Source: Spizellomyces punctatus DAOM BR117 (Eukaryota). From it: a stretch of DNA of 64,000 nt. This document shows, piece after piece, positions 3,553 through 50,745 of this stretch (the first letter of the stretch is position 1; every line of letters begins with the position of its first letter). Where the stretch lies: the NCBI GenBank assembly GCA_000182565.2, contig KQ257456.1. One strand, 5' to 3'. Position numbers and translations under genes: made by a program. The notes under the pieces were generated by a model, which worked only from the letters and a program-made list of their open reading frames with translations, had not been told where the DNA came from and ran no database searches.

Positions 3553-6500
3553 TCAAGCAATAGTGCTTTTCCTCTTTGTCTTTGACGTTTTCTTGGAGCC
3601 GAGCGGCGTCGCTCTAGGTGTTGATGTGGCTACTATCGAAGCAACAATGTACATCCAGTTCATCGCCTTTTCTTCGCTTGGAGTTTGGAAGATGAAGCGA
3701 CCTGCTTTAGCTGTTTGGATCGCGAAACGCTTCGGCGCCTCTTCTACGACGAAGACTTCGCATATATCGGATGCAAGAATGACTTGATGCGACCTCGGCT
3801 GGAAAAGGACGGGATCGGTCTTAGGTACAATCCTCCTATCAGATAGCGGCCCAATATACGTACCACATCCTTTGGGTCCAGATCATAGTGGATGACAAGT
3901 GATGAGGGCGGTACGGTGGAGATTTGCAGATGACACTTCTTCCATACGCTAAAAAAGTTGGAAGTTTTTCTGAATGTGAAAGATCCAGCGAGATACTGCG
4001 GGAAGACAAACCACTTCAGCATTGTAATTATTGTCACAAAGGAACTTGCCAAATTACTGACCTTCGCCATAGGGGCCTCTGCCATGCTTTTGATTTCCAT
4101 GTCATTCTGCTCGATATATAAATCAGAATGCATAATTCCGGAGAGTCCCTTAATTCCACCACCTCCGTCTTCGGAGGCCAGGAAGACCATGTATAAATGA
4201 GTTCCAATCAGCAGTGTCCATATGACAGCGACCATCACCCATAATAGACTAAATCGGAAAACGAATCGCTCAAACGCAGTATTGTTCCTCGTAAAGTACG
4301 CATACGGCACAAGCATCAACGAGAGTATAATCGTCCAGCAGCTGTCAATGGAGATAGGCGTCAGTGACACTGAGCATTAGGCCAACAAAAAACACTTGGT
4401 AGTCGGTACCGACATAGTATATGCTATTTGTTTCGCTTCCCCAAAGTCCGTCGGAGCGTTGCGCGTCTTCCACGCCAAAACTGCATTTATGAGTAGCAGA
4501 ATGACATTGAATCCGTTGACGAGACTCGCGAGCACGTAGCTTCGCGTAATATTGGCTGATCCACAGATACGAATATATGTGGTTGGGGTAGTTTGTAGGA
4601 CAACTATAGGATAGTCCAGCCCCGTCCAGAGAATTAAAAGTAACTGGAGAAAAGCGCTTGTTGGCTGATTGCAGTTTCAGCAAAGTTACGTGAGGTACCA
4701 ATTACCAGTGTTATCAAGAGAATCGCTCCGCTGATTTTGTACAGTTCCCGATTGGGCATCGCGATGGTTTGAAAATCGGCGTTGTCTGTTTGTAAGAGTT
4801 AGCTCATTGTCATTGAGCGACAGAAACCGCATGTTTGCATAGCGAAATCAAAGATGCTAACCAAAAATGCGCCAAATTCGCCATGCCTTAGCTGCAACGT
4901 TTGCCTATCAGCAGATTGATACTAGTTAGTGGTCACCGAGGTTTTCCTGACCATAGAATAATGCTACCATCACAAGGGCAAATCCGACCGATTGAGTCCA
5001 TCTTTCTATTGTACATGTTTGAGGACTGATATCAACGACATTTACGTAAATGGTGGATAACATCGACACAAGACCAATCTACAAGCCAAACAGAAACGCA
5101 TTAGTACGAGCGCCAACTATGGTAACTGAATTGCTCTTCACATACCAAAATATTGACACAGAAGACAGGGCTCCTTTTGACCATTACCTTGTCCGTTCTC
5201 TTCCACAAAATCAGCGCCAGGCTGACGATGCAGATTGCAATGGTCACCGAATACAGTGTAGTAAAAACCGCTCCGGTTGCGTTTTGGATAGTGATCTGAT
5301 CGCGGACCAGCACGACATGATCTAAAGGAACCGTTTGACGGTTGCCGTACCATGTCGGAGCTGCCTTCAATGTCGCCTTCTGCATATCAATACTGCCAAT
5401 AACGGGCAGCGCACGCGCCGAAAAGTAGGACTGTGAATCCCAAGCAGCGCCGTCAAATTGATATATATTTGTATGTCTAGAAAAACGCAACATGACGATT
5501 AGAGCTGAAAACACAAATTCAAAGGGGCAGAAACTAACAATAGTCGGTCTCCTCTACTTGACAATACGATTTTACCGGTGGTTCCTTCATAACCAGTCGA
5601 ATTCCACACTTGTAGGGTAAGGGATTTGTGAAGCTCTTTGTCATACCAGTCGAGAATGGTCAGATTGTCTCGGTTAAGGACTAGGTCAGCGGCGTTGGCA
5701 ACTAGGTAGCAGGGAGGATATGATGAATAAAGTATGGTTCGAAACTCTTTCCTGCAAGGGAAGGACTACGGCAACATACAACTGTAGATCATGTCGTAAA
5801 ATGTTCTTCCCGGTGGGAGAGTAGTTAGTCCCAGTGCCTGTGTACTTCACCTGAAATAAGATTGCAACTTGTGCATTACCTTGGAATAAGCGATAGCTCC
5901 TTTATTGCATATCGATCAGACCACCTATTTAATGACATTAGGGCCATTGTTACAAATCTATGCATCTTTGGACCTCTACAGCCTCATTACCTGTCACTGT
6001 TCTCGTCAATATATGCATCCCACCGGCCTTTCAAGTGCGTCAACATAGCTGGCTGTAAAAGGGGGTCATTATCATATTGCGTAGCATCCTCTTCGACGGT
6101 TATCAATCCCCTGGACTGTGCGAGAAAGTCTTCGCCAAAGGTTTGGATCATGGTGACATTATCCAGGACATTTATTGCCTGTGCACATTGTCCATCCATG
6201 TCAGTTAGTTTTGGTAAGACTATAATAAGGTGGAGCGTAAAGAAACTGTCTCACATGGCTAGAGACCCAAGCGTAGTCTTCTCCCACGAGTCCATACATA
6301 CTACATTCTCAAGTGAGCGCTTGACAAGGAAGTGACATGATTGAATCTTCATACCTGGCAGTGTAATATCAGCAGCGGCACATAGGACCCATGGTTACCG
6401 TGGAGGAGGTAAAAAACTCGCACTGCCTCGTATGCAGAATAAGCAACGGCCATTGCCTACCACAGAACAGACAAAATACATCGAAGAGGCGTACATACAA

Positions 6501-35300: not shown

Positions 35301-36122
35301 CTAGGTATCTCCTCTACCCTTAAACGCATACTGCGGATTCCTCGTCCCAGTCAAGCGCCACTGCGCGACATCCAGCTTATTAACAGCCGGTCGTCCGGCT
35401 AATCTTTCCCATGCCACAATCATAGTATCAATATCGCCCTTTTTCATTCCAGGCCAATTGAAAGCATCGACGATGCGGAGAATGAATTTGCGCGAGGGAT
35501 TGGCGGGGTCAATCACTTCTACTTCGAGGCCGCACCATTCCTTCCCATACTTTTCCCAAAGGGTTGTTTCAGTCGCATTGTTAACGTTCCAGTGCGGCTT
35601 CGTGCCTTCGCTCATTACCCCGAAGTCCTGGAACAAAAGGTGAGCTGCGAGTTTGGTTGGAAGCAGGCAAGAAAGATAGCTTACGGGGGCGAACCCTAAG
35701 GTGTAGTATTTGGGTCGTTTGCGCGGAAATAGGAAGCCGGGTTTGGGTTCCGGCAAATCCTGGTGCTGTGGTCGGGCTTGAAGTAGTTGTAGAGGTTTTG
35801 CTCGTTGAGGTTCTGGCGGTGGAAGTCGTCGTGGCGTTGGTGGTTGAAATTTTCGAATTCGAGGTGATCCGAGATGTTGATGTTGTTGTGATGCGTGTGA
35901 TCGCACTCGTCCTACTGCTCGTGGAGGTCCAGCAATTTCCAAAGTTGAGCTGACAACCGGCAGCGCAGTGGTCAGCGCTCGTTCCGCACCAACCCCACCT
36001 TGAGCAACAAAAGCCCGGACGGGCATGTAGCTTTATTTAGTTGAACATTGGCCGTTGATGGATACCGCCGGCGCCCCACATGCTAAGACTGCAAATGATA
36101 GCGTTGCCAGCAGATACGTCGT
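35301..36122 (-). pseudogene. Frameshifted gene for a secreted hevein/CBM18 chitin-binding domain, Thr/Ser linker and RlpA/expansin-like double-psi barrel protein
   Basis: Signal-peptide-like segment begins with ACG, not ATG; NGQC..ATCPSG and FCCSRWGWCGTSADHCAAGCQLNFGNC lie in different frames (shifts near 36040 and 36014, TAA at 36033-36035); Thr-rich linker; WCGLEVEV...IVDA...IDTM C-terminal domain in another frame. Confidence 0.7.
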
Positions 36123-37412
36123 ATCGCTTCTCTTTTCCGACGGCCACAAAGACCTGGGCCCAGCACAGCGAAGGCGTTCTGCCGTCACGGCGTGAGAGAC
36201 CCTCTGCTGTTTGAACGCGTTTTCGCGTTGCCTCACGCGCGGAGCTTACGTAACCACATCCTGTTCAGCTTACGCAGTGGGACGTTTTGGGTCACCTTTC
36301 GGCCCTCATCGAGGACCAACCTTTGACGACCTGGACGTACGATAGCTTTTTGTCCGCCCTGGCCTCTGATTGCAATGCATCGTTCCAAGGTCTCGCAACG
36401 CCGTTGCACCAAAATTGCGCGCGAAGGCTAACAATGAGACATTCTTGAGCCAGCGCCGGGGAGTAATCGAGGCGTTGCTGGGAAGTTACCAAGAGGAGGC
36501 AGTCCTGGATCTCGATACTGGTTTGGGGAGACGCTGCGGAGGCAATGTTTCTGTCGCTTGGTCAGAAATAGTGTTATGGTGCGGATAGGTGGTGGATGGC
36601 AGGTAAACAAACGAGTACTTTTGGATTACTTTTCATAAGCATTGTACTGAGTCTTTCTCTCGCACAGGAACTCAACATTTTCTTAACCGAACACACACAT
36701 CTTGAACACCGAATTCCAACAGCGCGATCCTTTTCCACAGGGGGAGATAAACGGGCAACTCGTTTACGACTCTGAAAGAATGGAGTTGGATATTGGGAGT
36801 TATTTAGGGGTTATTGGGAAGGTATTGGGATGGTTTGGGTATAGATTTTATACGGGGGTACGGCAATTGGGATGGAAGCGGTGGGTGGGGTGGTATGGGG
36901 ACCAAGTCGGAGAAGAGATATTCCGAACGGGACTTGGACGGCATAACGATTATATTCAGGATGGGACACGGTCTTGGCGTTAGAAGTTCTTCCTGTCGAT
37001 TACGCTACTGGAATATATTGTTGTGTGATAAAAGATTGTTTTAAGGGTTATCATATATCTTTCATTCATCCATTCATCTATCTGTCTGTGGTTTCTTGCA
37101 TTTCCTCGAGGTTTTCCTCAGTTACCTAAATCTGCCGGTGTCACCTCTCGGTCTTGAAGCTGAGCGAGAACACACCAGACAACCGGAATCGGCTGAACCG
37201 CTAGTAGGTCTGTTCAGATATTTCCTCAAAAAGCGCCAAAAAACTCGAAAAGGCGATTCTTGGCACTTTGTGGTGCGGATATTGACGCTAGTATATACTT
37301 TCCTTCAAGAGTTTTGATTCCCGCACTTTGGCCACTCACAAATATTATTATACCAGTAATATCCAATGAAAGATCAAAAATGTAAACAGTTCCCTAATCC
37401 TCTTTCACCCCA

Positions 37413-40400
37413 CTAAAGCAAGCTAAAAAAAGTCGCCACGATGGTCCCCAAGATCCCAAGCCATGCGCCGACTTTCACATTGGCAGCACCGCTGACGCGC
37501 GCCATTTGTATGCGGCTTTCATCACCCCTTTTCACCCTGAGGATGGACCACATGCCTTCCACGACGTGGGACCTGAGATTGCAATAGAGTGCAAATAAGA
37601 AACCCAGGAAATCATCAGCATGTAAATGAGCATTGTTGACGAGCTTACCTTAAATTACCCGCCCTCACAGCCCAATCTCCGACCTCCTCTGCCCGGAAAA
37701 GAAAAGTCTCGGTCCTACCAGGGTTGATGGCATTGTCGACACCGGTCGCAACCGCACCGGCATTTTCCAGTTCAGAAAACACATGTCCATGTACATGCAA
37801 CGAAATTGCTCTGGGTTTATCATTCGAAGCGACCATATGGAACAATTGAAGTCTTCCCCGAGTTGCATGGAAAATGGGAGTGGGCGGATTGTCAGGTGTA
37901 AGCCACACTGGATCAAACGTAGGAGCCGACCTGTAATTGAGTCCTTTCTGGCCCTGATCTTCGGGATCGATTCCATTGGGACTACCGCTCAAGGGTGACC
38001 GGACAAGATGGCAAATTTGGTCAATGTCTTTGTCTATTTCCCCGGCCTCCGATGGCCATTTACCATCCTTGAAGCCGTTGTTGTTACGGATGTCGCACCA
38101 TTCCTCGAGCCAAGGATTAGTGCTCAGCGGGAAGGTGTTGATGACATTGTGGAGGTGATCTTTGGGATATTGAGACGCGTCTAGTCTTCCGTTGGCGGTG
38201 TCGTTCATCACGTCCACCTCGTTCAGTCGTGGGGGTGTTGGGTCAAAGTCGGCGACCGGTTTTTCGGGGTCACCGTCATGGAACAGTCGTAGACCTAAAA
38301 TATCGGCAATTGTACTAATTAACAACTTTGAACCACAGTATTTTCCATGCATCCGCAATGCGTACTCACCGTCTTGAAGCATAACAACATGCTCATCCAT
38401 CTCAAATATCTCATCATCTTCCAAAGACGGATGGAATCCCATTGCTCCGCCGGTAGCTTGGAACCTAAGATCTTGATCGTGGAATTGTGGAGCGTCAAAT
38501 GTCCTCGTCAGTGTCGCCTCCGCTCCATACCAAGTGCTGGGAATCCAGCCTTCCTTCTCCACCAGCAGCGCGCCGATGAGACCGTGATGCCGATGGTTAC
38601 GGAAGTCTGCTTGATCTTGCAATAGAATGGGGCTGCCGTAGAACTATATTTTGCACACCGTGTCAGCAAGACGCTTTAGAAAACAAATGCGACTGGGGCA
38701 CACATACCTGGTCAGCAAACCATGTAAAAGCGCGCGTCTCACCATTTGCAACGGTTTGATCCCCGTTTTTGCCCACTAAAAGAGGCCCGCATCAGAGGAG
38801 ATGTTGACTCTATTAACGGGTAAACAGACATGGTATTTACCGTTCGTCCCGTCATTCACTCTGGTATCGAAGAGGACTATGTCGGCGTGAATAGAAACCC
38901 GCGGGGATACTTCGCGATAACTCCTCAAATCAACGGGAACTGTAGGATATAACGACTTAGGTCCCGACGATATGCGAGTTGCGGTCGGAAGTCAGCATAC
39001 CTTCCGGTCGGTTGGGCTCAGCTTTTAGATCAGGGTTAATATTGTTCGTCAACCAAACCGTAATCCATTCCCCTTCGATCGCCCGAATAACCAAAGGCTC
39101 CGGATTCTTATCCTTGTCCGTTTTCACCTCGATCCATTTTGTGGTCCCAGGTTCCTTATATGCCTCCAGTCGATAAATCAATCCAAAGGGATCAATTCGA
39201 TTTTGCCCCAGAAAGCCTTCCGTATAATCAATGCGCCGGCTTTCGGCCACTACACGATATTCCCTATGCTTTTTAGGGTCCGGTTTCTGTTGGCTGGGCA
39301 GTTGCTTCGCGAAGGGTCTCGGATTCGAAGGTAAGGTAGGGAGGTTTGGTACTTCCTTGTCGTGCACTCTCAGAAGTGACCAGCATCCGAGCCAGGTATC
39401 GTCAATTGCACGCCAATAGAGCATCTAGTACAAAGGGGTCGGTAACCTTGAAAACAACACGGCAGGCGGTGCAATCACATCCTTCACGGCTTACATGATC
39501 TCCTGGAGAATATACAGGTTCAACGATCTTTGTGAAAGCTTTTGAAATTCCGAGAATCTGTTGCTGAACAAGTCGGCTATTAGGGTCGGTGAAGAGATCG
39601 TGCCAGCTAAGAACGGGAAGAGATCTTAGAACTGAAGAATAAGAATAGATACGACCGCATATGGCGTACCGTAAACCGTAAGCATTGAAGCTATGCGACT
39701 CCTCATGCGATCCCTGGCCGATACGCAACCTTATAGTATCGTTCGGATACGATTGGTAAACCGTCGTGGAGGGATCACCAAAGGGATCAGATGAAAACAA
39801 AATGCTCGGGTCAGGATCTCGTCCGTTATTCTTCCTACGGAACTCCTTGATTCTTTCTCGGAGTGGTTCGCTCTTGTAGTTAACGAGCATGATACCCTGA
39901 TCTTGGTCCGAGCCTGGGAAGTTAGGTGGGTTCAGCGGCAGTCCGTGTCTGTTGAAGGCTGGATGGAAGTCTGCGACGAATTGGACAACTTCGCGGTACC
40001 AATCGCCTTCTCTTGTTTTGATGGCTGCTTGGACGCCAGTAACAATAGGTCGGTTGAGATTGTCGTTGGCAAACCAGGTGGCTCCTAAAGGAATGCAGGG
40101 AGATCAATTAATCCTTCCGCTCCCCCCAACTCTTGAGGAGGTAGAATTTGTGTCCTTACCAAAAGGCTGAACCAAGTTCAGTGCATACAACCCCTTCTTT
40201 TGCCGAAAATTAGCAAAGAGATGATCGTGAAAAAATACTAGGAAAAGCAACCTGACATTAGAAGAGTCCTCATACTACCAAAACACGACTCTGAATGCAG
40301 AAATGCTCACCATGACCAAACTCTTCATCAGCCCACCACCTATGGATAAGGAATTTTCCAAAGCGAGGACCGCTCAGATAGTTCCATCCAACGGAAGCGC

Positions 40401-43159
40401 CATCAGAAACCAGGACATCGAATTTGACCAGGTGTACATGGATGCCGACTTCGCCTTCGGTCGGATGCGCCGGGCAGTCGGGAAAGGGCGGATCAAAGGC
40501 ATTCCCGGGAATAAAAGTATCGAATTTGTTTTTCAAAGTATTTCTCAAGACGTCACCCTTGTTCGATCGCATGATGAAGGGATCGTAGGGTGTCGGGGTG
40601 TTGCGATCGCCGAATTCTTCTTCTTCCAGCTGATAGAGATGACCTGAGGGGTCTGCGACGAGAGATAATAAGTACGCAAACAAAGTACTGAAAGCCATGT
40701 CAGTACACGTCTTCCGCACCATGCCAGCCAAATCTATTGAACAGAATATTTCGGTTCAGAGCAGATATGTTGCGGGCCACTTCCCGTACAGGGATGCCCC
40801 TGTCCACAAAATTCTGTCTAGGTGTCGGAATGAGAGTGAAGGTGCTTCCAGGTTGCGGATCTCTGTTCATGGCGTTAACTTCCTTCTCGGTCGCAGGTCG
40901 GAAGTCCTGAAAATTATGGAAGAGGTGAATTGCGAGATTGGTTGTGAGATTGGTTTTTGAAAATGGATAAGATAACTTACGGATCCTTCCGGTATGGGAC
41001 CCCACATTTCCGTAGGCCAAGGGACTCGCGGCGACTTCTGGTGAATTTTACCAGCAATGAAATTGGGAAATCCGGGGCGGTCAAGTGTGGGGTTTGGCGG
41101 GGCTTGACGGTCCGGTAGAACCCGCAGAGGCAGAATTTGCTTTCCGTTGGGATAGGTCAAACTGCCGTCTTGTAGAGTATCAAAGGTACGGAAAATGCCC
41201 CACATTCCAAGAGTAAAGTGCGGATACAACTAGAGGAAGAGATATGTATAAGTTCAAGAGTTTAAGCACCGGGAAGATACAACATGACATACGTGGCAAT
41301 GGAAGATCGCATCGCCGATACTTTTCTAAAATTCAGACAGAGAGAGAGAGGCATTAGAAAAAGGAAAATCAGCAAAAGGAATCATCTGGTTTTCAACACA
41401 CCAGGCGGGATCCTGCACCATATAAGGCCGTAAAGGTCGTTGCCCATTGCGGGGACAATGAGAAGGAATCAATGATCGGACTGTCCACTTTGCCATCGAC
41501 GGCATACCATTGATGGACTATAAGAGGCAAAGTACATGAATAATACATCGAAGTACGTTGACGCCGAGAAAGCATAAAACAAACCATGCCAGTGAAAAAC
41601 TAGCACAGCAAAGCCGTATTAGTTATGAATGTTTTTTCTTCAAGCGTTTGCGTAATACTAGCTTACCATGCGTCTCTCTAACACCACCATGGACAACGCG
41701 GAACTTTACAGGATCGCCAGCATAGTTGAAGAAAACAAGGCCAGGATCACCATGCATCCACGAAGAATGATGCTGTTCTTCGCCGTACACGGGTACTTCC
41801 AGAGTTCCAGCTTTAATGCGATCGAAGACATCGCTTTGACGATTACGAAGTGGTTCGGAACGATAGTCTACGGTGAAGCAGACAAAAGATTAAGTAACCG
41901 AAAATATTGGACTGGGTAATCCCGGATGCTTACTGATTGCATGCACGGCGTCTTCCTCTTTGGCATTAATTTGGGCGTGGTTCGTTACAAATTTGTTGGG
42001 ACCGCATGGGCTTTCCGTCAGGGTACGACCAAATCGAATCTCAGGCTCATCGTGAAAGATTGTCACATGCTCCCGAAACGAAGCGGTGGGGTGGTGAAGT
42101 TCCGGTTCTTCGTCAAAGAAGTTTGCCTTGAAGTTCTCGAATCCACTGGAGGAGTTATAAACTGTTAGAGAATGAAGTTGAGGCGCCTTGCCACTTTTGG
42201 TACTTACGGGGGTTTAGGGGGATGGATATCGGCAGTTAACCCATCACGAATGGGTTCCCCAGTATGCGGATCTGTCCACCTGGAACCGTAAGGCTCCACG
42301 ATGAGAGCGCCAAACAGTCCATGCAAATTGGTGTCATTCTCCGTGCCTGGAAAAACAATGTGATTGTTCAATTGAGTAAGAATCCGATCCTAGAAGCAAT
42401 CGCAGCCCTTAAGACGTACCTCCGAGATTTCCGGCATCGCCGATGTGGAATACCCCTTGGTGACTGCATTTCCAGTGGTAAGTATATTTACCGCCAGGAG
42501 GAGCCAAAGACGGTGGATTGCGGCCGACTAATAATAAGAAAGGGTCAGCACGGGCTGCTGAGCGGGGAATTTTGAAAGTACTTACCCGCAGATCCATCAG
42601 ATTTAACATCATGTCCATCTAATGCCACATGCATCCCTACAGGATGCTTCCTGATTTTGTTCTCCAGCACGATGGTGACGGTATCATGCAAGTTGCAGCG
42701 GAGCACAAGTGGGCGGACGAGGGGATTGAGTTCGACCCGCGGTGCTTTTGCTGAGGGAATCAACGGATCCGGCGAAACGAACGAATGAGCGTAGCGTTCA
42801 AGAGCGTCCTCGTTTTCTATTAAACAAGCGCTATAAGTTTCGCAGAATTGTGACTGGAATACCGGACTAGCAAAATTACCTTTGAGAGCGAACATTAAAC
42901 CATTCGGGTCATGATCCCCGTATACATTATAAACGATCGGAACTTCCAAGGCAACCACATCTAACGTACGAGACAATGAGCTCTAACTTGCATCACTTGA
43001 TAGGAGGCAAATCTCACCATAGTGGCGATTTTGGCGTTTGACAGCTACGGTGAAGTCAAACGAATCTACATCGTGGCCATGGACAAAGGCCGGAACTGCG
43101 AGCAACAAAGTGCCAAGTGACAGGCACTTTACAGCATGAAATGAAGCCCCAAAGAGCAT
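37413..43159 (-). CDS. MnxG-type large multi-cupredoxin-domain multicopper oxidase (putative Mn(II) oxidase) with signal peptide and GPI-anchor-like tail; about 21 exons, frame intact
   Basis: Spliced motifs IVYNVYGDHDPNG, LHGLFGALIVEP, EEQHHSSWMHGDP, VHGGVRETHVFHWHVHQW, IGDAIFHCHLYPHFTLGMWG, HVHLVKFDVLVSDGASVGWNY, FFHDHLFAN, GSHEESHSFN, DQADFRNHR, LHVHGH, GNLRSHVVEGMW, collinear with Bacillus MnxG as I recall it. Confidence 0.88.
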
Positions 43160-43274: not shown

Positions 43275-43958
43275 ACAGAGCACGATCGAGTGAAAGTAAT
43301 CGTCTGATGTCTGTCGCAATCTGCATCCTACTCGGAAAGGCAACGATGCGCCTTGGAGCAAGGCTGAGGGCGAACCTAGGTGTATTCTGTAACGTCTTTT
43401 ACTAAAAGCGAATGATGAGAAGCTGCGGCTCGCTGAGCTTGTCCTTTCAACCAGAAGATTACCACGAGGAGGGGGCAAAGAAATTGGTGGAAAATGAACG
43501 TAGCAACAAGTACGGACAGAGCACGATCGAGTGAAAGTAATCGTTTGATGTCTGTCGCAAATCTGCATCCTACTCGGAAAGGCAACGATGCGCCTTGGAG
43601 CAAGGCTGAGGGCGAACCTAGGTGTATTCTGCAACGTCTTTTACCAAAAGCGAAGATGAGAGGCTGTCCTTTCAACCAGAAGATTACCACGAGGAGGGGG
43701 CAAAGAAATTGGTGGAAAACGAACGTAGCAACAAGTACGGACAGAGCACAATCGAGTGAAAGTAATCGTTTGATGTCTGTCGCAAATCTGCATCCTACTC
43801 GGAAAGGCAACGATGCGCCTTGGAGGGCGAACCTAGGTGTATTCTGCAACGTCTTTTACCAAAAGCGAAGATGAGAGTCTGACCTTTGAACCAGAAGATT
43901 ACCTACCACGAGGAGCGGGCAAAGAAATTGGTGGAAAACGAAGTAGCAACAAGTACGG
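43275..43958. repeat. Tandem direct repeat, three copies of about 241, 225 and 218 bp
   Basis: Unit start acagagcac(g/a)atcgagtgaaagtaatcg at 43275, 43516 and 43741; each copy ends ...gtagcaacaagtacgg; copies differ by small indels. Confidence 0.95.
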
Positions 43959-44865
43959 CAAGGCTGCTGGCTTCACATCAGACGACAAAATTGCGTTCGA
44001 GGAGCAATTTGAAAGATTGCTACTGCTGCTCCGCAACTCCGATTGATGGGTCCATGAAGAATTCGTTCCACTTTGTATCCAATGCTCTGCGTTGTTTTCC
44101 ACAACGAGCAGATTGGCGTACATTTCTACAGGTTCTTTTATCTGTTGCGCCAACGTCCTCTTTGAACCCAATTTTCAAAAATCGTTACGGTCAAACCTAT
44201 CCAGCGTGTTCAAATGCCCAAACTCCGCTGCTCCGCAGCTGTTACCCTTGGGGGATGACGCTATCACGGGACCTTGTGCTGACATAACAAAATGGTTGCT
44301 CGATTTCGAAAATGCAATATGATGGTATTGCATGCTCAACCATCATGGTGTCAGAAGTAACTTTGCTAAACAATGCGTCAAATGTATCATTTGGTACATC
44401 GTACATGTAGTAATGTAGCCGTGAGTTGGTTCGGTAACCTTGTAGAAGAAGCGGTTCAGACTGAACCGAGGGGGCCTTGTGGGTTGCGGGCTTGGAGAGC
44501 CGAATCTGGTAAGTTTGGCTGAGCCGGAAGGTCACCGTAGACCCATATAGGGGATGTAGTGAATTTCTATAAATTACCGGAAGCTTTGTAGACGAAGTAG
44601 TTAAAGTGGGAGGAGAAAAGAAAAAGTCTCGCTCAGCGTGTAAATTATGACGAGTATGTTGATCTCGAAAACGTGTCCGCAACAAAGTCGCTCCTTCTCT
44701 CCTCCTGGCATGCCCTCGCTGCTTTGCCGACGACACAACTCTCCCATTCTCGTGGTTGCTCCCGCATTCCCACCAACCTCCTAATGAGACCACCGTCATC
44801 CAGCCCCGGAACGCTTCCCGCAAGGCCGCTGCAACAACCGGCATTTTCCAAGTAAGTATACTCGT

Positions 44866-46624
44866 ATGTTCACCAGTTTGAATCGGATACTACGGATTTT
44901 CCCCGAAAGGTCTGCTGCCCTCTCTGCATGGAATTGGCCCAGAGGAATGCACACCAAGATTGCCAGAGTGAAGAAAGTGGATACACGCACCCACCAGCTT
45001 TTGGATGAGCATGGTCGGACCCGTTTTTTTCGCGGTGTCAACGTCGTGTTCAAAAGGCCGCCTTGGCATCCAGTTCTGGACCGGTTTGACGCCGTCACGT
45101 CGTTCGCCGAGGAAGATGCTCGTCTGCTTTCGAGTCTCAATATAAATAGTATCCGTTTAGGTGTGCACTGGGCGGGTGTTGAGCCTACTCGTGGTGAATA
45201 TTCGTCAACTTATATTGCTGCCATCCGCCAAATTGTACAAACGTGTGCTCGTTATGGAATATATGTGCTATTGGAGTTCCATCAGGATGTACTAGCTCCT
45301 CAATTTCGGGGCCATGGGGTTCCAGATTGGTTTGTGAATGAGGACTGGCTAAGTGGATGGAAGAAATGGCTGCGATTTCCGGTACCGAATAGATTCATAC
45401 CTGCTCGAAGAGATGCGGACGGTATGCCACTGGAGGACGACTGCAAAGGACTAACTTGGTACTTGCGTGAGTACACTTACTCTGGCTCTTTGATAGTTCA
45501 TGTTCGTCAAACTAACGTAGTATCCCATTGGTGGGTTGTGGTGGAAAGTGTATTTCACCTATGCTGTTGCTGATGCATTTGGACGATGTAAGGTTGTGGC
45601 GGTTGCTACTTGACGGAGCGGCCCAATGAAGTGATCCAACTCTGCTCTAGTATACAACAACCATGACGGCCTCCTAGACGCATTTGCTGGCTATTGGCAG
45701 CATGTGGTTGAAGAATTTAAAACCGAGGCAAACATTTTAGGTTACGAGATCATGAATGAGCCATGGTAAATTGATGACATTTCTTGCTTGTGATGGATTC
45801 GTCGCTCATGCCTTCAGTCGATCACCTCTGCAAGGCCCGGAAATCATTGGAAGAATCCGTTGCTCCTCCTTCCTGGTTATGCAAGCGGAACTACACTCCA
45901 TACCATGCACACCCATGTCGCACAGGGGATCCGCCGAGCAGACCCTAATGCCATCATTTATTTTGAAGGTGCAACGTGGGATGTAACAACGAAAGCGCCA
46001 TGTGTGCCAGGAGGCATCGAGTATGCGGATCGTTCTGTATTGAGTTATCATTTCTATCGCCCTCCCCAACGAACAGACATTGATACCTACATGAAACGTC
46101 GAAAAGCCGATGCTGTAAAGCTTGGTGGGTGCGGCCTCTTCATGACGGAATGGGAGATGTGGTACGGTAACGGGAGCGACAAGCGATTTCAGGAGATGTG
46201 GGATACTGTTACCGCCGCCGATCGACATCACCAAAATTGGATGGGGTGGGCATATAAATCCTTCGCACAAGGTAAAGGCAGTACAGATGGATCACTATTT
46301 GACGATGAGACGGGTAATAGGCGGCGGCAATTTGAGGAGCTGTGGAGTAGAACATTTCCTACCGCAGTAAGCGGCAACGTGATTACAATGAAGTTTGAAA
46401 GAGATACTGGAAGATTTGAACTCGCATTCGAGTTCAAAGCCTCCGTCAAAGAGCCGACAGAGATTGGCATTTCGGCAGAGATATGGTATCCTCAAGGGTA
46501 CCGAGTGGAAATCACACCAGTGGGAGTAGCTCTTTGGCATGGAGACGCAAGAACTATTGTGTTAGATATAGACAGGAGCACTGCAAATGGAACCCAGATA
46601 AACGTGGTGATTGAGCGCCAATGA
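44866..46624 (+). CDS. Glycoside hydrolase family 5, endoglycoceramidase-like, with C-terminal beta-sandwich
   Basis: LLDEHGRTRFFRGVNVV, IRLGVHWAGVEP, LEFHQD, GYEIMNEPW (acid/base E), LSYHFY, FMTEW (nucleophile E), SRTFPTAVSG. Confidence 0.9.
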
Positions 46625-47437: not shown

Positions 47438-50400
47438 CTAACCTTCCACTACCCGTACAGTGATATTACCTCTCTGGGGATCTACTCTTTCTACCCTAAC
47501 CTTCACCTCCTTGCCGACAAGATCTGGGCCCCCGGACCCAGGAGTCAACCCCACACCTCTGCCGATAGCAACATTCGCTGCAACCCCACCCAAATCCGTC
47601 AAGATCACCCACATTGCTCCGCTTCTGGTGTCAATCCCTGTCACTAAGGCATTGTACACTTCACCCTCTGATTTCGAAAGCGCATTATACTGCCTGTCAT
47701 CAATTTGTTCCCTAAAGTCAACATACGGCATTTTCCAGCCTGGCGCTTTGTCACGCTCCCCTCGGCGAGCGAGCACCTCTCGTCTTCTGATCCATTCGCA
47801 CGCCCAAAACCTGTCCGTTCGATCGGTTAGAACCTTTGTTCGTTTTTCAATGTCGAGCATACGATCCGCTATGCTACCGACTGCGTCTAGGTTGAAGGGT
47901 ATCTTTTCCTTCAACATGTGGGCCTTCATGTTCCAGTGCACAACCATATCTTTAAATCTTCTCAGCGGGCTGGTGACTTTGACATATCCAGCTGAGCTTC
48001 CCACTCCAGGGATACCCATACTGTAATGGGCTACAGGTGTCACGTCCATCACCGCACCCGGCATGTACGGTAGTAACTTTCGAAATTCACCGAAAGGAAT
48101 GACACCCGACGTCGGATCCTGTGCCTTTAAAACATTGGAAAGGACTTTCTCTGCCGTGTGGAAAGGCAGGTTTTTCGAGCGCACATGATCCAGCAGGTTT
48201 GGTTGCCCCCGATACATTGCGGGCACCCCATTCTCGGTACACCATTTTGCCGCTATGCGACCGGCCAGGATCATACATTCAGCAACCATGAGATGACTCG
48301 GACTCAAATGCCCTGCCCCATTGACGCTCAAGTTTATTGTAGGCCATGTTTCGTTCGGAGGGTAATACGGTTCTGTTGGGAGGAGGGGCGTGAAAGGTTG
48401 AGGATACGGCTCCAATCCTATTCGAAATTCTGGCTGATCGGACAAAAAGCCACCGTTTTGTAGGCGAGAGCGGAAGGCTCTCTCCATCGTCTTCTGAAGC
48501 TTACGCAAATCCTCCACACCATTCTGGCTCACGTCCTTTGCCGAATCCCCCGACACGCCAGGTTTGACATTTCGTTTGGCGAGCACTTGTCGTACCCACG
48601 GTGTTCGCTGATGGTCATGGAGCTGTACTCCATAGACATTGCTCCAATCTAGCACTTCGTCCACATCATCGTAATGAATAATCTTCACATTGCGCACGAT
48701 ACTAGGTTTCACGTCGCAATCAAGAATTTCCCCATTTTCGCCAACACGAGCACTGAAGGTCATCGCACACTGTGAAACACCGAGGTTGAACCTTTCATTA
48801 CTCAGGAAGTCCGGCATCATAGGATAATGCCTTTCAGGTAAATAGACGCTGTTGCCCCTTAGCTGAGCAGTGAGTGACAGAGGATGGCTGGGCGGTATAT
48901 ACGCAGTCGGGTCGGCAATATGGACATGTACCCACAAGCCGTCGGGGGTCTCTTCTACTGACATCCCATCGTCCAACTCATGTGCGGTAGGGTCGTCAAT
49001 TACATACACCGGAAGGTTACCAAAATCGCGACGAATCTGTGCACAGGGATCAGTCGCGTAAAAAGATATCTCAGTCGGATCCGTCGGGGCGATAATCATA
49101 GATTTGACAAGATCTAGGACTTTTTGATTTAGGCCTTCATTTGTCGACGCTTTCCCGTTAGACTGCTCCACTCTCAACTTGCCCTCGTCATCAAATTGGA
49201 ACTCTCTTACAAGCATCTGCTTGCCAAGGAGCTGAGCCTGTTGAGCAACGTCTTCTGCATAAGTGCTCAGCCCATGGCCCTCCAACGTCACCATCTTCCC
49301 CTTCTCGCTCGTTTGGTACAATGATGTATTCTCCCAAGGAGTCCATATGCCTATCTCCTTGAGCATTTGCATCGCCTCGCGTGATCCTGGCTTGTTGCCG
49401 TACAGAGGATATAATGCCTTCAGGATGCCACCTAATGCCACCTGCCGATAAGGACTCGGGAAAACATCTGGTTCAAGAGCAGCATCCTTCAGAGCTGCAA
49501 TGAAACTATGATCCGTATCTGTGAATTTCACAGCCGGTCGTTTCTTGCTTGCAGTCTCTAAGTCATGTTTCGAGTCACGATGCCATTCGACAAGACGGCG
49601 AGCCTTTCTCAAAAACTCCCGCAGCTCGTTAGTTTTCTTCTGTTCGCCAGCTGCACCGGCTGCTCGTACTTGGTCCCACATCCATCGAATTCGCTCACTC
49701 TCCGCGGCTGATCGGAGTATGAACTCGCGATTTGTTCGCATGTGCCGGGGTTTGACTGGCTTATACAACCGCACGTTTCTGAGCAGAAAATTATACGTGG
49801 CGTACAGTTCTGCGGGTGTCGGGTCTCCATCACCGTCCCCGTAGAACACCCATCTAGCAACAGAATCTACTGTGACAGAACGTGCCTTCTTTTGCTCTCC
49901 AAATATTCTGTACGCCGAGGCAAACCGCTGGCGCATTGTATAAGCATATGTCTCAGCTGCCTCCCGGAAATTCTCAATGTGGGCAATAGCAGTAGTGGGT
50001 ATACCGGCGGCAGTAAGTAGCGCGGCAGATTCTGGAGATAGGCCGGCAGTTGCAAAGCTATTAGAGATGGGTTTCTGTACCACACTGCTGTAGGCCCATT
50101 CTGGCGCCTGGAACGTAACATCGCCTGCCCTGTGCAGAAGGAAATGGCCGTTATAAAGGATAGTTCGATATTCTGCACCAAAGGTGTCGTATTCTGGAGT
50201 TTTTGCAAGACAACCGACGTATGTCTTGTCACCACGGCGAATTTCCACGAAGTCTCCAGGAGCAAGATCTGGTACAACAATTCGGTCCTCCAAGTCGTCG
50301 GCTTCCTCAACAGCGCGTAGACTTGCAGTGCGATCCCCAGTACTTATATCCTCCAGATCGACCTCCTTGAGCGGAAAGGCTGTAACTTGTAAAGAACGTT

Positions 50401-50524
50401 GTGTCGGGGACTGCACCTTTGGTCGACCGGTGCAAGGAAGGCGGGACCTAACAGCGCCCACCGGCAACCCCGGTATCCCCGACAGCAACCATGTTGCCCG
50501 TCGGGTACGGCAACATCGTATCAT
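47438..50524 (-). CDS. Mitochondrial RNase II/RNB-family exoribonuclease (Dss1/Cyt-4-like), single exon, 1028 aa
   Basis: RRDFGNLPVYVIDDPTAHELDDGMS, VHVHIADPT, SVYLPE..YPM, VAECMILAG, YVKVTSPLRRFKD; Arg-rich presequence-like N-terminus. Confidence 0.9.
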   Translation of the reverse strand: MIRCCRTRRATWLLSGIPGLPVGAVRSRLPCTGRPKVQSPTQRSLQVTAFPLKEVDLEDISTGDRTASLRAVEEADDLEDRIVVPDLAPGDFVEIRRGDKTYVGCLAKTPEYDTFGAEYRTILYNGHFLLHRAGDVTFQAPEWAYSSVVQKPISNSFATAGLSPESAALLTAAGIPTTAIAHIENFREAAETYAYTMRQRFASAYRIFGEQKKARSVTVDSVARWVFYGDGDGDPTPAELYATYNFLLRNVRLYKPVKPRHMRTNREFILRSAAESERIRWMWDQVRAAGAAGEQKKTNELREFLRKARRLVEWHRDSKHDLETASKKRPAVKFTDTDHSFIAALKDAALEPDVFPSPYRQVALGGILKALYPLYGNKPGSREAMQMLKEIGIWTPWENTSLYQTSEKGKMVTLEGHGLSTYAEDVAQQAQLLGKQMLVREFQFDDEGKLRVEQSNGKASTNEGLNQKVLDLVKSMIIAPTDPTEISFYATDPCAQIRRDFGNLPVYVIDDPTAHELDDGMSVEETPDGLWVHVHIADPTAYIPPSHPLSLTAQLRGNSVYLPERHYPMMPDFLSNERFNLGVSQCAMTFSARVGENGEILDCDVKPSIVRNVKIIHYDDVDEVLDWSNVYGVQLHDHQRTPWVRQVLAKRNVKPGVSGDSAKDVSQNGVEDLRKLQKTMERAFRSRLQNGGFLSDQPEFRIGLEPYPQPFTPLLPTEPYYPPNETWPTINLSVNGAGHLSPSHLMVAECMILAGRIAAKWCTENGVPAMYRGQPNLLDHVRSKNLPFHTAEKVLSNVLKAQDPTSGVIPFGEFRKLLPYMPGAVMDVTPVAHYSMGIPGVGSSAGYVKVTSPLRRFKDMVVHWNMKAHMLKEKIPFNLDAVGSIADRMLDIEKRTKVLTDRTDRFWACEWIRRREVLARRGERDKAPGWKMPYVDFREQIDDRQYNALSKSEGEVYNALVTGIDTRSGAMWVILTDLGGVAANVAIGRGVGLTPGSGGPDLVGKEVKVRVERVDPQRGNITVRVVEG

Positions 50525-50745
50525 TGCAGCAGCCCAAAAATTGCCTTACCAAACACGAGTAACGACAAGAGTCAGAATGGTGACCAGTCTTGCCAGGTGG
50601 TAAGCGTCCATTCGACAAACGTTGTCACGGCAACAGCCCCAACTGCCGATCGGTTGAGTCATCAGAACTGAACTCACCTCGTCACAACCTTGCTTTAAAA
50701 GCGCTTCCCCCAATCACAACGTTTTCCGCATTCCTGCTTTCAATC

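Follow-up and report, generated by a model that had tools for sequence, protein, structure and literature searches.

The last exon of a multicopper oxidase gene of the MnxG family in the chytrid Spizellomyces punctatus DAOM BR117 appears to give a secreted six-domain oxidase a lineage-specific signal for attachment of a glycosylphosphatidylinositol (GPI) anchor, which would hold the enzyme at the external surface of the plasma membrane; we place the probability of this reading at about 0.6. The gene lies on the minus strand of a 64,000-nt stretch of contig KQ257456.1 (GenBank assembly GCA_000182565.2), referred to as the window, and its 22 exons code for 1442 amino acids (aa) without an internal stop. 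A GPI-signal layout had already been proposed in an initial annotation made from the sequence alone. In support of this proposal we find the splice to the last exon, a signal-peptide-like start and a fit to the fungal consensus for such signals, while the restriction of the tail to Spizellomyces and its absence from five orthologue ends speak against it.

According to this reading, the N-terminal signal peptide would lead the oxidase into the endoplasmic reticulum (ER), where GPI transamidase would cut at S1417 or G1418, release the last 24-25 residues and allow the new C-terminus to be joined to the GPI lipid. The oxidase would then be found on the outer plasma-membrane face of the zoospore or sporangium, with about 13 residues between the anchor and its last folded domain. 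In yeast, the presence of a stalk and the nature of the residues upstream of the omega site bear on whether a GPI protein is retained in the membrane or linked to the wall. Because the Spizellomyces protein has no Ser/Thr-rich stalk and carries basic residues immediately upstream of the omega site, the yeast rules suggest retention in the plasma membrane and not cross-linking into the wall.

Gene model and expression of the last exon

The whole coding region covers 37413..43159 (minus strand, as are all features of the gene), with the ATG at 43159, the stop codon at 37413-37415 and 21 GT..AG introns of 57-78 nt. The window is eukaryotic DNA: a 332-aa open reading frame (ORF) at 37648-38643 on the minus strand shows 100% identity to SPPG_09220 (P0007, 1180 aa) of Spizellomyces punctatus DAOM BR117 over 27% of the length. 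Residues 1-1174 of our model were placed by the exact match of P0007 to the window, and the model beyond residue 1174 was placed by homology to the proteins P0002 (Powellomyces) and P0004 (Rhizophlyctis).

The last exon (37413..37572) encodes residues 1390 (in part) to 1442 and the stop codon, and the translation of 37413-37571 on the minus strand reads SHVVEGMWSILRVKRGDESRIQMARVSGAANVKVGAWLGILGTIVATFFSLL*. Its first R comes from a split codon, AG being contributed by exon 21 and G by position 37572. The end described in the initial annotation, GMW..RV followed by SGAA, a spacer and a hydrophobic tail running to the stop, is thus borne out by the translation. The last intron (37573..37648) is 76 nt long (GTAAGC..TCTCAG), is in phase 2 and splits this Arg codon; upstream of it exon 21 (37649..38294) codes for the last cupredoxin-like domain and ends with ...GDWAVRAGNL(R).

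The splice evidence consists of raw reads of the sequencing run X10, which carries the same species label; none of the listed runs is on record as RNA. The joint at the last intron ('skips 76, CT..AC, cut +2') is seen in three X10 reads with two start places, and seven further reads break at 37574. The mean depth is 25.9 over 37334-37550 and 1.33 over 37117-37333; therefore the last exon is expressed and the 3' untranslated region is short (37334..37412, end position approximate). The X10 library is 3'-biased, there being no depth upstream of about 38200 except for scattered depth of at most 2 per bin over 40589-41456, where the first mate lies mostly on the plus strand, and less than 0.1 in two other bins. 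No joint besides that of the 76-nt intron is listed in the X10 reads, the library covering essentially the 3' end of the gene.

The position of the last intron is supported independently by a metagenomic chytrid contig (L002), in which a GT..AG intron interrupts the same codon position and is followed by RSHVTEGMWTILRIDDSKNERE*. Two soil-metagenome proteins (P0224 and P0225, 125 aa, 67-68% identity) end at ...GN[LV]R, which corresponds to the last residue of exon 21. The last exon is real and is spliced as the initial annotation had read it, and the X10 reads show the joint to the exon at 37413-37572 and not to a different last exon.

The annotated protein SPPG_09220 differs from our model in the acceptor of intron 20. 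It takes an AG 20 nt upstream (38315/38316), continues as ...LQD-VQLPIF and ends at 1180 aa. The downstream AG (38295), whose use is supported by homology, defines intron 20 as 38295..38369 (75 nt, GTGAGT..TTTTAG), leads to ...LQD-GLRLF as in the orthologues and opens 268 more residues including the last cupredoxin-like domain. If the public model were correct, the protein would stop at residue 1180 and the last exon would be untranslated 3' sequence. The deposited P0007 does end in ...LQDVQLPIF, derived from the upstream AG, and no RNA reads cover the intron 20 junction. However, the downstream acceptor restores DGLRLF together with the 268 in-frame residues, the region 38946-37648 is 49% identical to the Powellomyces protein P0002, and the added residues include H1343, which is common to 88 of the 94 aligned family members. 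In addition, the frame crosses the confirmed last intron into the conserved SHV.EGMW..LRV end. We regard an end at residue 1180 as hardly credible; by homology, the public model appears to be too short and would have to be extended by 268 C-terminal residues.

Some further observations concern the exons and the contig mentioned above. Part of the copper-ligand motif FHWHVH is encoded by a 15-nt micro-exon (41585-41599) located between two 67-nt introns. The runs X1-X3, whose labels name three other organisms, each gave one contig of 168-206 nt identical to 38003-38252, inside exon 21 only and uninformative on splicing; no other match was present in the 6.5 kb compared, and the identity may be due to carry-over between samples. 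Downstream of the oxidase, contig L002 encodes a C2H2 zinc-finger protein with many repeats (4590-5876), which differs from the downstream neighbour in the window.

Layout of the C-terminal extension

The usual end of the family, ...GMWSILRV, is followed in Spizellomyces by an extension of 39 residues (K1404-L1442; 37416..37532). Since 63 of the 115 homologues with a recognisable G[ML]W..LRV end motif stop at most five residues past it, this extension can be regarded as an appendage. It begins with a polar linker of 13 residues (K1404-V1416), which leads to the candidate omega region S1417-G1418-A1419 (37485..37493), assigned by pattern match with either S1417 or G1418 as the omega residue. 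The translated spacer A1420-G1425 (ANVKVG; 37467..37484) separates this region from a hydrophobic tail of 17 uncharged residues, A1426-L1442 (37416..37466), which extends to the last residue of the protein. The mean Kyte-Doolittle (KD) hydropathy of the last 15 residues is 2.19, and the uncharged run, counted from behind K1423, comprises 19 residues.

At the other end, residues 1-28 (43076..43159), starting with the first Met of the ORF, resemble a signal peptide according to a hydropathy heuristic. They contain the small residues V-H-G at positions 26-28, and the cleavage site is our own reading according to the -3/-1 rule. A hydrophobic 19-mer within residues 8-27 has a mean KD of 1.67; this segment and the C-terminal tail are the only two places in the 1442 aa with a hydrophobic 19-mer of KD 1.6 or higher.

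For fungal GPI proteins the consensus [NSGDAC]-[GASVIETKDLF]-[GASV]-X(4,19)-[FILMVAGPSTCYWNQ](10)> is quoted in 10.1101/132464. The tail fits this consensus with S1417-G-A or G1418-A-A, S1417 and G1418 being 25 and 24 residues from the end, respectively. Judged by sequence, the components of a GPI signal are all present: an N-terminus resembling an ER signal, small residues from omega to omega+2, and a spacer with an uncharged hydrophobic end. When the consensus is combined with two further requirements, a mean KD of 1.9 or more for the 15 C-terminal residues and an uncharged run of 17 or more residues at the C-terminus, two ORFs match among the 486 that extend from stop to stop over 60 aa or more in the six frames of the window. 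One of these is the last exon; the second ORF with the full layout runs antisense to a low-complexity gene. When the 39-residue extension was shuffled, 19 of 20000 shuffles retained the layout. With one match among the 485 other ORFs and these 19 shuffles, the GPI-like layout is rare by chance.

At the start of the linker, residues 1402-1405 (37523-37534) read R-V-K-R, which is not present in the relatives and resembles a dibasic site of the kexin/furin type. Cleavage at this site could release the enzyme from its anchor, which is speculation. Two other targeting routes were considered and rejected. A reading of the C-terminal SLL as similar to a type 1 peroxisomal targeting signal (PTS1) lacks the basic residue and is at odds with the signal peptide, and the presence of a signal peptide also led us to reject a tail-anchored protein inserted by the guided entry of tail-anchored proteins (GET) pathway.

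C-terminal ends and origin within the family

A tail of the Spizellomyces type was found in none of the 222 fetched homologues. Seven of them have a hydrophobic 17-mer within the last 45 residues, namely six bacterial or metagenomic proteins (P0025 from Roseomonas, P0037 from Pontibacter, P0044, P0045 from Flavisolibacter, P0104 and P0158) and the chytrid protein P0111. In all seven, 3-14 residues come after the best-scoring 17-residue hydrophobic window, basic residues being present among these or beside them, and the GPI pattern matches none of the seven; on these grounds their layout is predicted to be that of an ordinary membrane anchor. In Spizellomyces the hydrophobic stretch is the very end of the protein, so that the order of a hydrophobic helix and then a charged cytoplasmic tail is not found there. 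Among the first 80 homologues the GPI pattern has a single match, P0022, which has an Ala-rich, weakly hydrophobic end.

The initial annotation had taken the tail to be eukaryote-specific, and this can be maintained in part. In the comparison of C-termini the same tail was found in no bacterial homologue, and because none of them ends in a hydrophobic stretch, the tail was added in the eukaryote. C-terminal tethering as such is not eukaryote-specific, because six bacterial homologues carry C-terminal membrane helices after the same motif.

For the phylogenetic analysis 94 family members were compared by FastTree on a fast alignment, with local support values and no bootstraps; P0001, P0003, P0007 and any protein shorter than 1000 aa or longer than 1900 aa were not included. 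A single clade (support 100) holds the five chytrid orthologues; its sister is P0082, and the paralogues P0105 and P0111, also from chytrids, come next. Of the bacterial proteins with a helical tail, the four in the tree (P0025, P0037, P0044 and P0045) fall at three distinct positions within the adjacent clade, and none of them is sister to the chytrid clade. Therefore the C-terminal helices were gained repeatedly, and the tail of Spizellomyces was not inherited from a helix-tailed bacterial ancestor. P0111 (Fimicolochytrium jonesii) and the partial P0105 (Borealophlyctis) represent a second chytrid paralogue clade of MnxG-family oxidases, and another fungal relative, P0174, comes from Basidiobolus ranarum.

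These helices are the background for the main competing explanation, according to which the tail is an uncut C-terminal transmembrane anchor of type I without a cytoplasmic tail, located in the plasma membrane or an internal membrane. The 19 uncharged residues after K1423 with their KD of 2.19 could span a membrane, six bacterial homologues and the chytrid paralogue P0111 use a C-terminal helix behind this end motif as their anchor, and such helices were gained repeatedly, the four bacterial proteins being found at three places of the tree. However, the trailing residues with basic ones that follow the helix in 7 of 7 homologues are missing here, the helix is short and holds three Gly, two Thr and one Ser, and a triad of small residues stands at the distance expected for an omega site. 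We consider a transmembrane anchor possible but unlikely.

The orthologues of the chytrid clade have different ends. In Powellomyces the protein has a His/Asp-rich tail of 51 residues, and short acidic tails are found in the two Rhizophlyctis proteins, in Borealophlyctis and in L002; the Fimicolochytrium orthologue model is cut short and uninformative on the C-terminus. The GPI-like tail is, as far as these sequences indicate, restricted to Spizellomyces and not shared by chytrids in general. At their N-termini the Rhizophlyctidales orthologues P0004, P0005 and P0006 (Rhizophlyctis rosea and Borealophlyctis nickersoniae) have a basic stretch followed by a hydrophobic helix with a KD of 2.5-2.9, which is predicted to be a signal-anchor, in contrast to the cleavable-looking signal peptide of the Spizellomycetales. 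Membrane tethering therefore seems to recur in the chytrid clade by different means, with the C-terminal GPI-like form being specific to Spizellomyces.

A tail that occurs in one species only, next to orthologues ending in short acidic or His-rich tails, could also be a young, neutral or harmful read-on past the ancestral stop. In this case there would be no anchoring, and the protein would be secreted, retained in the ER or degraded. By eye, just the first residues of the extension resemble the orthologues (KRGDES versus EDGDPF). However, chance seldom produces small residues, a spacer and a hydrophobic end in this order, and the exon is expressed. Moreover, the tail occurs together with a cleavable-looking signal peptide, whereas the tailless relatives have an N-terminal membrane helix or no anchor. 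A read-on of this kind is improbable in our view.

Several points weigh against a GPI anchor. None of the five readable orthologue C-termini has the tail (these are from Powellomyces, from Rhizophlyctis in two cases, from Borealophlyctis and from contig L002). The tail is thus of recent origin, and no selection on the tail is demonstrable. The GPI pattern alone is loose and matches 34 of the 486 ORFs of the window, and the residue preceding S1417 is Val and not a small one. The last splice is supported by just three X10 reads with two start places, plus the loose ends, and the intron 20 junction that keeps the frame open is without RNA coverage and conflicts with the public model. Finally, the presence of the GPI machinery in S. 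punctatus is assumed from the general knowledge that fungi have this pathway. The available part of PMC4973528 lists N-glycosylation genes for S. punctatus, but not GPI genes. On the other side, GPI-anchored ceruloplasmin shows that a six-domain multicopper oxidase can function on such an anchor (PMC3738974).

Enzyme part, neighbourhood and known systems

The orthologue P0002 matches the structure of Bacillus MnxG (9bxa_A) with E = 1.4e-196 and 659 bits; no PDB match to MnxG was obtained when the last 215 aa of exon 21 were the sole query. The only NCBIfam match is the MnxG equivalog NF041487, which P0007 (199 bits), P0002 and P0004 reach with 199-214 bits against a cut-off of 3100. By these scores the chytrid protein would be classified as a relative within the MnxG family and not as an equivalog. 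Pfam returned no families for nine single-exon ORFs, and its Cu-oxidase models were reached weakly, and by whole proteins only.

The ligands H374/H376, H424-C425-H426, H430 and M435 (HxH, HCHxxxHxxxxM) are common to 90-91 of the 94 aligned family members and the copper ligands H643/H645 and H689/H691 to 93-94 of them. In the last domain RAG stands in place of the HCH of the classic oxidases, likewise in the bacterial members. Because the copper ligands are kept, the enzyme part is probably active and would oxidise a metal ion or a phenol. We found no literature linking MnxG with chytrids and none naming SPPG_09220, and a search on GPI proteins of chytrids brought up nothing of use; the literature found to pair 'Spizellomyces' with 'multicopper oxidase' concerns iron uptake in Lichtheimia.

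In the tree, the chytrid proteins fall into one clade that is surrounded by bacterial members of the family; for the C-terminal part only 84 relatives were found among the 1.8 billion representatives searched. The gene looks like a transfer from bacteria, and like an old one, because it now has 21 introns.

Just upstream of the start codon, at 43275-43942, a unit of about 225-242 nt is present in three direct copies with 96-100% identity in parts. These direct repeats notwithstanding, Tandem Repeats Finder reported nothing upstream of the gene; the unit may act in the promoter or be left over from a mobile element. By eye, the ORF lists suggest three neighbours: a glycoside hydrolase family 5-like enzyme on the plus strand (44788-46624), an exoribonuclease-like protein of the RNase II/RNB type on the minus strand (47438-50545) and a small secreted protein-like ORF with a Cys-rich chitin-binding-like module, also on the minus strand (35301-36032).

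If the anchor is real, an otherwise almost wholly bacterial gene family would have been fitted to the eukaryotic secretory pathway, and differently so in sister lineages, and a large metal oxidase would be located on the surface of a genetically tractable chytrid. The weight of this is limited by the facts that GPI-anchored multicopper oxidases are known, that the tail is confined to one species and that everything beyond the sequence layout is predicted. A more far-reaching scenario, which we regard as quite improbable, is that a manganese oxidase of the bacterial MnxG type was taken up by a chytrid and that the lineages added different tethers to it. These would be the GPI signal in Spizellomyces, an N-terminal signal-anchor in the Rhizophlyctidales and, in a Fimicolochytrium paralogue, a mucin-like stalk that finishes in a hydrophobic segment. 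Oxidation of Mn(II) or another metal at the surface of these soil chytrid cells would then coat zoospore cysts or sporangia with metal oxide, without MnxE and MnxF. In that case the chytrid oxidase would be a eukaryotic counterpart to the Bacillus spore coat oxidase. The comparison with MnxG on the Bacillus exosporium and the idea of oxide-coated spores, both put forward in the initial annotation, would belong to this speculative scenario. Bacillus MnxG itself needs MnxE and MnxF, according to PMC5622069.

A known system that is close in sequence is MnxG of Bacillus sp. PL-12 (9bxa chain A; complex MnxG-E3F3), which belongs to the same family as the chytrid protein; the latter differs from it by a eukaryotic-type signal peptide, 21 introns and the GPI-like tail. 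The helix-tailed bacterial members, in which the helix comes right after G[ML]WGILRV, resemble the Spizellomyces protein in that C-terminal tethering is implied, but they have a basic cytoplasmic tail after the helix and no match to the GPI pattern. Among the chytrids, the Fimicolochytrium jonesii protein EV422DRAFT_539939 (P0111) is likewise an oxidase of the MnxG family, and its C-terminal appendage is of eukaryotic style and has a hydrophobic end. However, it represents the other paralogue, has a Ser/Thr/Pro-rich stalk of about 95 residues and continues with RGF after the hydrophobic segment, so that the strict pattern fails.

Surface-tethered eukaryotic multicopper oxidases are also represented by Fet3p, which has a C-terminal membrane helix, and by plant SKU5, which has a GPI anchor. 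The Fet3p-type ferroxidases and SKU5 are three-domain proteins and belong to another subfamily than the MnxG-type enzymes. No gene for an FTR1-like iron permease was seen beside the oxidase when the ORF lists of the window were inspected by eye.

The GPI form of mammalian ceruloplasmin arises by alternative splicing of the last exons, whereas one 3' splice form is seen for the Spizellomyces gene, whose signal shares an exon with the last conserved strand. Both are six-domain multicopper oxidases, the Spizellomyces enzyme with a predicted GPI signal, but ceruloplasmin has its type 1 copper in domains 2, 4 and 6 and represents another multicopper oxidase branch. According to PMC3738974, its six cupredoxin domains are held by GPI on the outer face of the plasma membrane. 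The principle of a GPI-anchored multicopper oxidase is therefore already known, and what is new is a fungal member of the MnxG family with such a predicted signal, together with the corrected gene model.

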